64,000 nucleotides of DNA from NCBI RefSeq assembly GCF_964213995.1, contig NW_027590156.1, positions 248,001 through 312,000 on the forward strand, read 5' to 3'. The translations under genes and the position numbers were made by a program. The notes beneath the pieces were generated by a model. The model made no database searches. It saw only the letters and a list, made by a program, of their open reading frames with translations, and had not been told where the DNA came from. Source of the stretch: Mustelus asterias (lineage: Eukaryota). Shown piece by piece: positions 26,254 through 56,680 of the stretch (positions within the stretch are counted from its first letter, which is position 1; each line of letters begins with the position of its first letter).

Positions 26254-27186
26254 TCACTTGTGAACTCGCTGGTGTCTCAGCAGGTGGGATGACTGAGTGA
26301 ATCCCTTCCCACACACAGAGCAGGTAAATGGTCTCTCCCCAGTGTGAACTCGCTGGTGTGTGAGCAGGTTGGATGACCGATTGAATCCCTTCCCACACAC
26401 AGAGCAGATAAATGGCTTCTCCCCAGTGTGAACCCGCTGGTGTGTCAGCAGGGTAGATAACTCATAGAATCCCATCTCACACTCCGAGCAGATGAAAGGC
26501 CTCTCCCTGTCCCTGCTGTGAATTTGCTGATGTCTCAGCAGGTTGGCTCACTGAGTGAATCCCTTCCCACAGTTGGAGCAGGTGAACGGCCTCTCCCCAG
26601 TGTGAACTCGCTGGTGTGTCAGCAGGGTGGAGGAATCTCCGAATCCTTTTCCACACACGGAGCAGATGAACGGCCTCTCTCCAGTGTGAACTCGCTGATG
26701 TGCCAGCAGGTCAGGTGAATCTCTGAATCCTATCCCACACTCTGAGCAGGTGAGTGGTCTCTCCCCAGTGTGAACTCGATGGTGCCTCTGCAGACTGGAG
26801 GACCGAGTGAATCTCTTCCCACAGTCAGAGCAGATGAATTGCCTCTCCTTGGTGTGAACCTGCTGGTGTGCCAGCAGGGTGGATGAATCTCTGCATCTTT
26901 TTCCACACACTGAGCAGCTGAATGGTCTCATCCCTGTGTGAACTCGATGATGTCTCACTAGGTTGGATGAAATGCTGAATTTCTTCCCACACACAGAGCA
27001 GGTGAATGGCCTCTCTCCGCTGTGAACTCGCTGGTGTGTAAGCAGGTCGGATGCATTAGTAAATCTCTTCCCACACTGAGAGCAGGTGAATGGTCTTTCC
27101 CCGGTGTGACTGCGTCGATGAATTTCCAACTCAGATGGGGACCTGAATCCCTTTCCACAATCCTTACATTTCCACGGTTTCCCCAT
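26254..27186 (-). pseudogene. C2H2 poly-zinc-finger gene (11 fingers) with in-frame TGA in finger 8
   Basis: ORF 26548-27186 ends GFTQ*, and the same frame resumes [10 protein letters not shown]... to 26254; acceptor at ~27341. May encode a 7-finger truncated protein. Confidence 0.8.
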
Positions 27187-27949
27187 GGTGTCGGTGTCTG
27201 TGTCTCGGTGCTTTTCCAGTCACAGGGATGGTAAAATGGGTGATGGTTTACCCCATCCTATAAAATTGAGTGACTCTGTCTGATCTTGGTGTGAAGTTTG
27301 GTTTGAGATTTCTTATGGCAAGTTTTTCCCTTTTAATATCCTGTAAAAGAAGTTTGCAAATGTCATCACTGTCAGTTCAGCTCAGAAATTCAGAATAGAG
27401 AACCAGTCACTGATGGGATACATTCTGCCACATGGATAATTATGGATTGTAACATTGTCATTAAAACATGTGATACCAAAGCCACAGCAATGTGGTTGAA
27501 TCTTAAATGCCCACCAAGGGCAACTAGAGATGGGCAAGAAATGCTGGCAACCATGTCCCACAAATGAATACAAAAATGATTGAGTGTAAATAATTTACAT
27601 TTAAAAATGTCTTCTGTCAACGGTGTAAATGCTCATTTATATATATCTATATAGATATATATATTTACATATTTATAAATGCTCATTTTATCATTGATTT
27701 CCTGAAGCTTCTGTTTTGAGTTTCAGACAGTTCTATGCCAAGTGTTTGAGGTGATTAAAAGTCTTTCATCTTACTCTTTGCATATCGATATTCACTAAAG
27801 CTGCACAGATTGATTTTCTTCTCATTATAAATATATTTTCAATACCTAAAAGGACAGTCTTTCAGCAATCCCCATTTTCCTTCTTTCTGGTTGATAATTA
27901 AGGGTCTGTACACTTGGTGTAATTTATGATTTTGTTCCTAATTTTATCG

Positions 27950-28445
27950 GTTTCCCCACCCGCCACAATCTCCACAACACAGCAAAAATAATCACTACTC
28001 ACTCATTGGGATTGTCAATGGCGGGCTTTATACCCAGCATTCCCCGCGGTGCTGAAAGTCCCCTTTCGACACTGCAGGAGAGTAGTGCGCAGGCCCAATG
28101 CTCATCCAGTTGGAGCATGCGCAGTATGAGTGATGTCTCCTGAGACAAAGACGTTTCTTTGGTTAACAGGCAGTCGGTAAGGATGCGGAAACCTGGAGTG
28201 AGTAACGGAGGCGATTCTGGTTGGGAAGAGTTTGTAAACACCGGGTGAATGCTCTCACCCCCTAGACGAACCTGAAGGTGCCGCGTTTGCAGCTCCGGGT
28301 CTTTTTACCGAAACGAAGCCCCGGTTACTGGCCGCCATCTTGGTTCATAGCCGAGGAGTGCGCATGCCTCTTCGTTCAGGTGACGTAACAGAGTGGACGG
28401 GGCCTCAGGGTCTCTGTTCCCAACTGGGTCCAAGTGCCCGGTGAT
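27950..28445. promoter_or_regulatory. CpG-island bidirectional promoter (ZNF pair 1)
   Basis: CpG-rich; NRF1-like GCATGCGCA (28115) and TGCGCATGC (28359); YY1 GCCGCCATCTT (28331); CRE-like TGACGTAA; splice donors on both strands (~27997 minus; ~28177/28198 plus). Confidence 0.7.
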
Positions 28446-28469
28446 ACATAGCTGAGTTAACAGATTTTA

Positions 28470-28658
28470 TGATGTGGAGATGCCGGCGTTGGACTGGGGT
28501 AAACACAGTAAGAAGTTTAACAACACCAGGTTAAAGTCCAACAGGTTTATTTGGCAGCAAAAGCCACACAAGCTTTCGGAGCTCTGAAAGCTTGTGTGGC
28601 TTTTGCTACCAAATAAACCTGTTGGACTTTAACCTGGTGTTGTTAAACTTCTTACTGT
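28470..28658. mobile_element. Palindromic solo Penelope pLTR (fold-back hairpin)
   Basis: ~75-bp inverted arms centred on GCTTTC-GGAGCTCT-GAAAGC; flanked by GTTAACAGATTTTA on both sides. Confidence 0.85.
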
Positions 28659-53511: not shown

Positions 53512-54582
53512 GGTGTCAATGTCCTTGTGTCTCTCCAGGTTTGACAATCAGTTGAAGCCTCGTTCACACATACAACCAGTGTGCAGTCTCTCCCTGCTGT
53601 GAATGGTGTGATGTTGCTTCAGCCAATGTAACTGATTAAAGATCCTTTCACAGTCACTGCATTGTACACTCTCACTCAGGTATCATTCTCTGTACTGTTC
53701 CAGTCACACTGATGTTAAAATCTTTCACAGCAGACAAAAAGGACAAACATTTCTCCTTTAAGATTCAAGATTGATGATATTCAGCTCCCGATGAATGGAG
53801 TGACTCTGTCAGATCCTGATGTGCTATCTGCTTTGAGAGTTCTGTCTGCGATACCTCCTCCCCTAATATATTGTAAAAGAGTTTACAAACGTTATCAGTG
53901 ACAGTACAGGTTAGAAATTCAGAACAGAATTTTAATTGCTAAGGAACATTCATTCCTCTCTCATTTATCGAAGGCCGTAAATATCTGGACCACACACTCT
54001 CTATTCACATTCTGCTGTATTTAATACATACCCAATAACACTATGATGTATAATTATACAGTTCTCTATTACATGATTAGAGATACATAGGGCTGTGAGG
54101 GAGTATTTTATTTCGACAGCTAGTGTTGCTGACCTGAAACTCTCTGCCTACCAGCTTGATGGAAGCAGAGAAGGTGAATAATTTCAGAATGAAATTGGGG
54201 GGGGTGGGGGGGGGGGGGGGCCACTTGAAGGAAATAACCTGTAGGGGGACTGGGGATGTAGAGAAGGAATGGGAGTGACTGGATTGTCCTACAGAGTGTT
54301 AGCATAGGCTCAAATTACTGAATGGACACCTTGTGTCGTAATGACGCTGACTGGAAATGCATATTGTAGCTACAGTAGGATAATACAAGATTAGAAATAA
54401 TTAATGTATTTTGTTACAAATAATATATCTAATCTGTACCATATTACAAGACTAGACGTATCTCTGTCCTATCTTAATTTAAATGTCAGCCTATCCTGGA
54501 GAAACCATCTCTTTAATTGTGAACATTAGGAAAGAGACCATCCTTTTACCCAGACAAATAAATGTGTCAGACTGAGAGAGCG

Positions 54583-55384
54583 AAAGGATGTCAATGTCTT
54601 GAAGAGAGAGAGACCTGGGGCAACCTTTCCAGAATCTGCAGCCTCCCTGGATTCACTTCCTCTCCCTTCAGTTGCTGCAAGTCCCCAATTACCCCCAGAA
54701 TGAGAAAAGAAATGGAAAGGGGGATGAAAGAAAGTGTTTCACTCACAAATGGTAGAGACAGGAGGAAGTTTCAGTCTGTTGTGCACCTCAATCTGAGTAT
54801 CACAAAGCCCGATTGGCTGAAGGACCAGAGTCCTTCCGGTCTTTTCCCATTGGTCAACACCTCAGCACGAAGGTCAGAAGGCGGGCTGCCCCGCTCATGC
54901 GCAGTGTCGCCTCTCCACTGGACATGCGCAGTCCCAGGCCGGGGGGAGGGGGTGATCACCAAGAGGCTTCTCGCTCTGGCCGGAGCCGCCAGCCGGTTAC
55001 CTGGAAACCTTGGCTGGAGGAGGTGCAGGGGGAGGGGAACAATGGGTGGGGGCGGGACTTCCGTGTCCGCGCGCCCGGGCCTGCGCACTGGCACCCCATG
55101 ACGTCATTGTGGAAGAGACTGATTCCTGTTGGCTGATTCAGGCAGGGCTCCATTGTGACGTCACAATGCGGAAGCTCGATTGATTCAGATTCAGACTCAA
55201 ACTCCCTCCTCTGGGCAACATCTGGGAGGAAATCAATGTTTCCCCCTTTCCATTTCTTTTCTCATTCTGGGGGAAATTGGGGACTTGCAGCAACTGAAGG
55301 GAAAGAAAGTGAATCCAGGGAGGCTGCAGACTCTGGAAAGGTTGGCCCAGGTTTCTCTCTCTCTTAAAGACATTGACATCCTTT
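54583..55384. promoter_or_regulatory. CpG-island bidirectional promoter (ZNF pair 3) bracketed by ~143-bp inverted repeats
   Basis: Arms 54583-54724 / 55241-55384; NRF1-like CATGCGCAGT x2, CRE TGACGTCA x2 (55100, 55157), GC box, CCAAT boxes. Confidence 0.8.
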
Positions 55385-55699
55385 GCAGTGTTCCACAGGA
55401 ACTAGAATTGTCTGATCTGAATTTCTATCTTGTTCTGACAGTGATGACTTTTGTAAATTCTTTTTACAGGATATTAGAAGGAGATGATTTGCTGATAGAA
55501 ATGTCAAGATCTAACATTCACTCAATTCATGGGAGCTGAATGTCATCGGTTTGAATCTGGAAGAAGAAACGTTTATCTGCTTGAGTTGGGTGAACCATTG
55601 GTGTGAACAGAAAAGCATCGAGGCCCGTGCAACCCGAGTGACGGTGTTCCAGTGCACATATTGTGAAAACTGCAGGAGAGACAGAAAGACACTCAGATC

Positions 55700-56680
55700 A
55701 TGGAAAAAGCATGGAAATGTGAGGACTGTGAAAAGTCATTCCGTTCCCCATCAGTGCTGGAAATTCATCGACGCAGTCACACCGGGGAGAGGCCATTCAC
55801 CTGCTCCAATTGTGGGAAAGGATTCACTCGGTTATCGATCTTGCTGACACACCAGCGAGTTCACACCGGGGAGAAGCCATTCACCTGCTCTGATTGTGGG
55901 AAGGTATTCACTCAGTCATCGCACTTGCTGATACACCAGCGAGTTCACAATGGAGAGAGGCCATTCACTTGCCCCATGTGTGAGAAGGGATTCAGCGATT
56001 CATCCACACTGCAGACACACCAGAGAGTTCACACTGGGGAGAGGCCATTTATCTGCTCCATGTGTGGTAAAGGATTTGCTCAGTCATCCAACCTGTATTC
56101 ACACCAGCGAGTTCACACCGGAGAGAGGCCATTTCCCTGCTGTGTGTGTGAGAAGGGATTCAGTAACTCCGCCAACCTGCTGAGACACCAGCAACTTCAC
56201 ACTGGGGAGGCTTCCTTCACCTGCTTTGAGTGTGGTAAAGGATTCAGTGATTCATCCAACCTATTTTCACACCAGCGAACTCACACTGGGGAGAGGCCAT
56301 TCACCTGCTTTCTGTGTGGAAAGGGATTTAGTCAGGCATCCAGTCTGCAGACACACCAGCGAGTCCACACCGGGGAGAGGCCGTTCACCTGCTCAGTGTG
56401 TGGCAAGGGATTCAGTGATTCGTCCAACTTTATTTCACACCAGCGAGTTCACACTGGGGAGAGGCCATTTAACTGCTTTGTGTGTCAGAAGGGATTCAAT
56501 CGATTATCTAACCTGCTGACGCACCAGCGACTTCACACTGGGGAGAGGCTGTTTGCCTGCAATGAATGTGGAAAGGGATTCACACGATCATCCCACCTGC
56601 TGAGACACCAGCGAATTCACAAACGATTACAAGCATTGGATTCTGCTGTTATTGCTGCTATTAATCACACCCAGAACTGA
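55700..56680 (+). CDS. C2H2 poly-zinc-finger protein, 326 aa, 11 fingers, no effector domain
   Basis: Open ORF; donor at ~55351, acceptor at 55469. Confidence 0.9.

Follow-up and report, generated by a model that had tools for sequence, protein, structure and literature searches.

CpG-island modules, likely two-way promoters, with exchangeable partner genes in an effector-less zinc-finger cluster of the shark Mustelus asterias

Sharks and rays have among the largest zinc-finger repertoires counted, yet are without KRAB. The accessible text of Wells et al. (2023; PMC10547256) gives 475–3,586 zinc-finger (ZNF) open reading frames (ORFs) in seven cartilaginous fishes and a correlation between ZNF and retroelement counts across animals. 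KRAB was lost in cartilaginous fishes (PMC8455134, accessible part). Human bidirectional promoters are enriched for NRF1, YY1 and NF-Y sites (PMC3082894, accessible part), and a head-to-head layout is by itself ordinary. Here we describe a 64,000-nucleotide stretch of the M. asterias genome (the window; G000:C124:248001-312000 within the 3.68-Gb assembly) in which six C2H2 finger arrays, g1 to g6, stand in three divergent pairs, each with one CpG-rich island (Table 1). An earlier note on this DNA had proposed that the expanding unit is a two-gene cassette; all six arrays are present where and on the strands that it placed them. We favor another reading, to which we assign a probability of roughly 0.7: a small number of CpG-island module families, which are likely to be two-way promoters, serve an effector-less cluster whose finger exons are swapped among them.

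The analysis used 1.46 Mb of contiguous cluster sequence from C124 (the window's contig), two regions of C71, C23 and C12, and an extra sample of 40 loci of 10 kb around promoter homologues. Most statistics come from the first 1.26 Mb (132 arrays, 128 neighbor gaps); C12 was added for strand-switch counts. The regions were picked by ZNF density and contain duplicates, so the gaps are statistically non-independent. The genome holds 1,222 exact matches to a 32-base first-finger pattern, a lower bound on family size. The window arrays are members of a family of more than 1,200 effector-less C2H2 zinc-finger genes, and the architecture is a variant of lineage-specific zinc-finger clusters.

The CpG islands with NRF1-, YY1- and CRE-like (cAMP response element) sites and outward splice donors described in the earlier note are all present. 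Island limits were set by eye, and motifs were scored with consensus sequences. NRF1-like sites are enriched beyond chance, occurring in 30 of 40 head-to-head gaps and 5 of 41 tail-to-tail gaps (p = 8e-9). YY1 sites occur in 14/40 and 2/41 of these gaps, respectively, and CRE sites in 17/40 and 4/41. CCAAT, which is present in islands 2 and 3, is by itself uninformative (20 matches across the window). Outward donors of opposite arms lie approximately 200, 230 and 560 bp apart in the three islands. The islands had been placed at the centers of their pairs; each pair does have one, but island 1 lies off-center, owing to the recent Penelope copy and further repeats in the intron of g2. Exactly one window-type island occurs in 28 of 40 head-to-head gaps, and one also occurs in 28 of 47 tandem gaps, where it serves one gene; 36 of 41 tail-to-tail gaps have none. 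As in bidirectional CpG-island promoters, an island with sites of the NRF1/YY1/NF-Y type lies between divergent genes.

These islands belong to repeated types. The core of promoter 2 is ~95% identical across loci with five different classes of left gene, and a 23-mer from it has 675 exact copies. Island 1 has 262 first-look candidates genome-wide. Promoter 3 has mirror-image arms, of which the arm of g6 has lost its first donor (55224). Among the matches listed, the promoter-2 23-mer has none before C71, while element E, a leader sequence described below, occurs on C12, C21 and C23; the promoter families therefore appear to be unevenly spread over the clusters.

The lasting unit is likely the promoter module with its non-coding leaders rather than a fixed gene pair, because other copies carry different partners. 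Comparison among copies indicates that the right gene of pair 2 reached its promoter through a recent junction, present in 4 of 16 near-full-length copies. At two other loci (L189 and L190), g3 and promoter 2 are kept and the right gene is different. A g6 gene was identified at 10 of 20 promoter-3 loci, with an identical fingerprint in seven and one contact change in three, one of which is also without one finger. The left partner at these ten loci is of the window type in two and of two other types in two each; four have no partner within 5 kb. In eight of the ten, homology spans the whole of promoter 3 and ends at the left exon-1 donor. On both C221 and C71, g6-type copies that are without the window partner have relatives of g6's tail-to-tail neighbor ~10 kb away. 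Insertions of ~0.3–3 kb were also observed right at the left-arm exon-1 end, near the donor, in L157, L158 and L166-L169.

Each of the 15 close copies of island 1, counting that of the window, is accompanied by an island-2 copy at a distance of 11–15 kb, and the tail-to-tail spacer at 49000-50600 was copied along with pair 2 on certain contigs and along with pair 3 on different ones. Thus, the duplicated blocks are multi-gene and have variable ends; growth by multi-gene segmental duplication is a property of KRAB zinc-finger protein (KRAB-ZFP) clusters as well. Among paralogous genes, head-to-head partners are not kept more often than tail-to-tail neighbors, whatever the divergence. In counts of ordered, and hence not independent, pairs, the neighbor was also paralogous in 14/21 head-to-head and 12/17 tail-to-tail cases at similarity ≥0.9, in 6/46 and 12/53 at 0.75–0.9, and in 0/145 and 4/222 at 0.6–0.75. 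No association of partner classes was detected among head-to-head pairs (mutual information, p = 0.14–0.58). Multi-gene blocks, replaced partners and unassociated partner classes speak against the two-gene cassette as the expanding unit.

We propose that each island module sends out two outward non-coding first exons, which are predicted to splice onto whatever finger exon lies on that side. Duplication and recombination would exchange finger exons among promoter modules. Because any exon facing away from an island would gain a ready promoter, new expressed pairs would readily arise on rearrangement, and pairing would therefore be a by-product rather than a two-protein team. The proteins probably work through DNA occupancy, with no repressor domain of their own.

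The coding unit is a single terminal exon comprising a decayed leader, its own ATG, the finger array and a stop. As in KRAB-ZFP genes, the C2H2 fingers form a tandem array joined by TGEKP-type linkers, and a single 3' exon encodes it. The earlier note held that the proteins have no effector of the KRAB/SCAN/BTB type. This is borne out by Pfam, which identified zinc-finger families alone in all six finger ORFs, and, more tellingly, by the leader: between the conserved acceptor and the first finger, it reads open in no more than 4 of 97 genes, and its phases are random (31/31/35). The 97 are those of the 132 genes for which an acceptor was found (none was found in 35). The profile search upstream of the fingers that the note had suggested covered 65 open frames on the sense strand, taken from islands and introns, and gave no Pfam effector above threshold. 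KRAB (PF01352) was identified in 0 of 76 candidates genome-wide, in a search without a positive control, and a search via an open leader for relatives with a longer N-terminus, over limited lengths, gave no candidate. The genes thus have neither the N-terminal KRAB on upstream coding exon(s) of KRAB-ZFPs nor the conserved short acidic domain that FiNZ-ZNFs encode in frame before their fingers, the latter judged without a FiNZ profile. The leader resembles decayed acidic coding sequence; an upstream coding exon may thus have existed ancestrally, but none is in use through this acceptor. A "broken" flag overcalls, as it counts relic upstream fingers (g5 is an example), and intact counts were not used as evidence.

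Paralogues differ in how their DNA-contact residues (positions -1, 3 and 6) evolve. The ratio of non-synonymous to synonymous change (dN/dS, omega) at these residues is 0.29 (36 pairs) and 0.72 (21 pairs) in close paralogues and 2.6 in 19 paralogue pairs at 86–92% finger identity. Binned in this way by divergence, the family holds both stable and fast-changing arrays. Many of the 19 pairs have flanks only ~4% diverged and differ in finger number. Finger shuffling in young copies inflates omega, as synonymous divergence exceeds flank divergence in many pairs and finger numbers differ. In pairs of the L161/L178 type and in C124/C71 arrays, flanks are 3–6% diverged, contact-codon sites are 20–48% different and the finger number has changed. 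Such pairs show minisatellite-like array turnover; g6-type arrays stay fixed.

The quick contact-residue turnover in some young paralogues would fit a diversifying repertoire, and transposon recognition by the family is plausible. The proteins could form a KRAB-independent repertoire that recognizes and silences transposons, as KZFPs and FZNFs do. KRAB-ZFPs bind transposons and silence them in a TRIM28-dependent manner; FiNZ-ZNFs show positive selection at DNA-contact residues and are expressed at zygotic genome activation, and their knockdown derepresses transposons. This is compatible with promoter modules serving exchangeable exons, as it concerns targets only, and we consider it possible, at somewhat less than even odds. 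It draws on the omega of 2.6, including several pairs with flanks ~4% diverged, and on the correlation of ZNF with retroelement counts noted above. Set against it are the purifying selection on contact residues in closer pairs, the part of the high omega that comes from finger shuffling, and the effector-less nature of proteins whose transposon targets are hypothetical. Furthermore, nearby transposable elements (TEs) are expected from segmental duplication alone (PMC11952569, accessible part).

Each arm of promoter 3 includes a 105-bp non-coding sequence, element E. It is 96% identical among 30 aligned copies of 49 matches, and identity drops to 47–60% in the flanks. The two arm types share it at 93% identity, and the alignment of their flanks is no better than that of shuffled sequence. 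There are 696 exact matches to a 38-mer, and hence at least 696 copies; among 100 of these that were listed, all are in ZNF-dense stretches except one on C21. The element runs in the direction of the next array in 47 of 49 cases, and was found in 18 of 40 head-to-head gaps, 13 of 47 tandem gaps and none of the 41 tail-to-tail gaps. The left donor is retained in 38 of 42 left arms, and the first donor is missing in 30 of 33 right arms. Right arms often hold the 5' half of the element alone, ending at a donor-like GTGAAT, which 78 of 79 copies retain. Each of the four possible pairings of upstream and downstream arm sequence was observed (40/20/11/2 of 79, with 6 unclassified); the arm of g6 has a recombinant form. 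Recombination was read from the arm-type test alone, and flank classes resembling retroelement insertions were dropped. Element E most likely acts as a control element for the whole family, located at or next to a 5' splice site, and it likely doubles as an exchange point.

Other identities were considered for element E. A hidden coding exon was rejected, as synonymous fractions are as expected in six frames and Atlas scores are below 0.9; a weak search found no protein homologues. A structured RNA was rejected as there is no Rfam match near threshold and folding z-scores are positive, i.e., worse than shuffles. A genome-wide TE was rejected given the absence of the element from the 41 tail-to-tail gaps and the position in ZNF clusters of the copies listed (100 of 696). 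Metagenome contigs gave 0 matches, which is uninformative.

The likeness of element E and of the promoter cores could have arisen through gene conversion or selfish spread only, with no regulatory role. One variant of element E tracks the chromosome cluster, occurring in 10 of 11 copies on C12/C23 and 3 of 23 on C71/C124 (p = 2e-5), and recombinant arms exist. Local descent, however, accounts equally well for the cluster variant, and neither the sharp edges of conservation, with a short form ending at the donor-like GTGAAT, nor the absence from tail-to-tail gaps is what such spread would lead one to expect. We regard it as rather unlikely. Still more doubtful, in our estimation, is the most far-reaching proposal for cartilaginous fishes, that promoter-centered shuffling, combining two-armed modules, element E as a switch and recombination hub and exchangeable exons, would yield a co-regulated anti-transposon repertoire without KRAB or FiNZ.

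Several observations weigh against promoter modules with two active arms and freely exchanged partners. The sameness of element E could come from conversion alone, and its role is deduced with no Rfam match, fold or coding signal behind it. At one cut-off, head-to-head pairs whose two genes belong to the same class are a little underrepresented (7 vs 10.5, p = 0.047), and the youngest pair-3 copies retain both genes. From sequence alone, the CpG-rich regions are likely two-way promoters, and both arms are presumably transcribed. The shared bidirectional promoter of the earlier note holds at this level, with one island per divergent pair, but outward genes flank just 35 of the 74 islands on both sides; 29 have one on a single side and 10 have none. 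Thus, a second outward gene is present in just 35 of the 64 islands that have one, and many promoter arms may be idle. The orientation statistics, run on the sampled clusters, likewise stand in part: neighbors switch strand in 87/136 cases, a modest excess (p = 0.001), which is 70/114 without the window's contig (p = 0.02) but fades to 55/97 for arrays of ≥5 fingers (p = 0.22). Among contigs compared over the interval between island 2 and the beginning of g4, one from run X1 connects 43296 with 43869, fitting the predicted plus-strand intron of pair 2; this sole splice support is strandless, comes from a run whose RNA status is guessed, and has mismatched letters at the joint.

These figures raise the alternative that the islands act for the most part as one-way promoters within an old inverted duplication, with the opposite gene often silent or decaying and divergence the result of frequent inversions. 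The weak orientation excess and the 39 of 74 islands that serve one side or none are in its favor, as are the truncation of g1, the lost acceptor of g5 and the stop in the copy of g4. The ORFs, however, are under purifying selection, with omega ~0.26–0.39 in five of the six genes flanking islands 1–3; the exception, g4, has a single copy for comparison (on C71), which bears a stop. The stop of g1 is also in its C71 copy, and g1 has dN/dS ~0.3 against one paralogue. Against one copy of g2, dS is 0.033 and dN 0.008, and omega is ~0.35 for g3 across three copies. For g6, 0 of 18 distinct copies are stopped, and distant copies have dS ~0.08 and dN ~0.02 (47 real non-synonymous variants after removal of 8 end-gap artefacts from 55). 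In addition, no other island of the three known types lies between paired genes, and the left donor and GTGAAT of the arms are almost always kept. One-way islands are therefore improbable in our view.

Least of all do we credit a head-to-head cassette selected and duplicated as a unit to co-express two cooperating arrays: three consecutive pairs in the window, the 80 of 127 genes with a 5' neighbor that stand head-to-head with it, recent pair-3 copies with both genes and the symmetry of promoter 3 suggest it, but in the sampled 1.26 Mb and 40 loci it is largely refuted by partner turnover while the promoter and one gene persist, by blocks that include tail-to-tail spacers, by the relatives of g6's tail-to-tail neighbor near g6-type copies without the window partner, and by the unassociated partner classes.

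Table 1. Features of the window. Positions count from its first nucleotide; strand is left blank where none applies.
Feature	Position	Strand	Remarks
g1	26254..27186	-	Array of 10 fingers, cut to 7 by an in-frame stop (26548-26550); acceptor 27340
g2	33407..34330	+	Intact ORF, 10 fingers; acceptor 33065
g3	39997..41337	-	Intact ORF, 14 fingers; acceptor 41526
g4	43925..45271	+	Intact ORF, 15 fingers; acceptor 43864
g5	52921..53511	-	Intact ORF, 7 fingers; family acceptor near 53870 without its AG
g6	55700..56680	+	Intact ORF, 11 fingers, DNA-contact residues conserved; acceptor 55470
Promoter island 1	27990..28430		GC 0.55, CpG observed/expected 0.76
Promoter island 2	42720..43400		GC 0.57, CpG observed/expected 0.93
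Promoter island 3	54790..55200		GC 0.61, CpG observed/expected 0.64; between inverted copies of exon 1 and element E
NRF1-like sites	28113; 42740, 42782, 43088; 54893		
YY1 sites	28341(-); 42771, 42815		
CRE sites	55099, 55156		Island 3
Outward GTGAGT donors	28002(-), 28198(+), 42957(-), 43069(-), 54746(-)		
Further outward donor	43296	+	Island 2
Imperfect palindrome	43163-43192		Between two CCAAT/GC modules of promoter 2; looser version in promoter 3
Derived junction joining g4 to promoter 2	43384..43385		19/19 scored copies continue with other sequence
Element E, left-arm copy	54608..54712	-	Just after donor 54746
Element E, right-arm copy	55253..55357	+	Donor-like GTGAAT at 55309
Penelope-type retroelement	28452..31120	-	In first intron of g2; reverse transcriptase and GIY-YIG-like tail, terminal repeats
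Degenerate unpaired ZNF exon	37009..38050	+	Short interspersed nuclear element (SINE) insertion; array part ~37500-38050

The three pairs are real, but the pure pair pattern of the earlier note is interrupted by a degenerate plus-strand array that it did not include and by an array remnant at 45500-45813, between pairs. The Penelope-type copy displaces g2 to 5 kb from island 1. It has a 619-aa open stretch, and its tail we take to be of the GIY-YIG type. It was inserted at an older Penelope end that is also in the C71 duplicate. The part at 28672-31023 is missing from this duplicate, which is 98–99.6% identical; thus, the full insertion is younger than the duplication.

Outside the finding, a frameshifted 13-finger array at 17594-19341 (+) has highly homogeneous repeats (83% match) and is without a promoter island of the three known types. 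An intact T-cell-receptor (TCR) alpha/delta-like V exon with a 23-spacer recombination signal sequence was identified at 16400-16897 (+), ~700 bp before the first ZNF acceptor. The upstream 115 kb (G000:C124:149900-264900) contain six further V segments of this kind, which point both ways and include broken ones. The ZNF cluster thus directly adjoins a TCR-like V array, either the actual locus or orphon copies. At G000:C71:5801139 (L131), a V segment, presumably of the immunoglobulin heavy chain (IgH) type, lies ~23 kb from a ZNF cluster.

Two or three promoter types and one 105-bp element with ~700 or more copies would allow measurement or perturbation of the whole family in one step, as with the FiNZ morpholino in zebrafish. 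Family-wide perturbation would make the idea of transposon defense directly testable. We found no published account of shark ZNF promoter architecture or of element E, in a search that left most subscription papers outside, and zinc-finger terms have no match in PMC2688522.

The closest described systems share parts of this architecture. Like the genes described here, the cyprinid FiNZ-ZNF genes of zebrafish chromosome 4q are lineage-specific, KRAB-free, clustered tandem C2H2 genes beside immune genes (PMC10547256, accessible text). In them, however, an upstream coding exon supplies a 28-aa acidic domain, whereas in the window family 93 of 97 leaders are closed and no more than an acidic relic is left. 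The words bidirectional, head-to-head and shark were not found in the accessible main text of that paper. Young mouse KRAB-ZFP clusters likewise grow by segmental duplication of blocks of 3–7 genes, with TEs copied along with the blocks, and have fast fingerprint turnover (PMC11952569, accessible part); unlike them, the window family is without KRAB. In the same part of that paper, head-to-head and promoter have no match, and shared two-armed promoter modules and a near-invariant leader element were not found. Human bidirectional CpG-island promoters have the same head-to-head layout and sites of the NRF1, YY1 and NF-Y types (PMC3082894, accessible part). What sets the shark islands apart, as known from their sequence, is that a few promoter types in hundreds of copies appear to serve one gene family, with partners that change.

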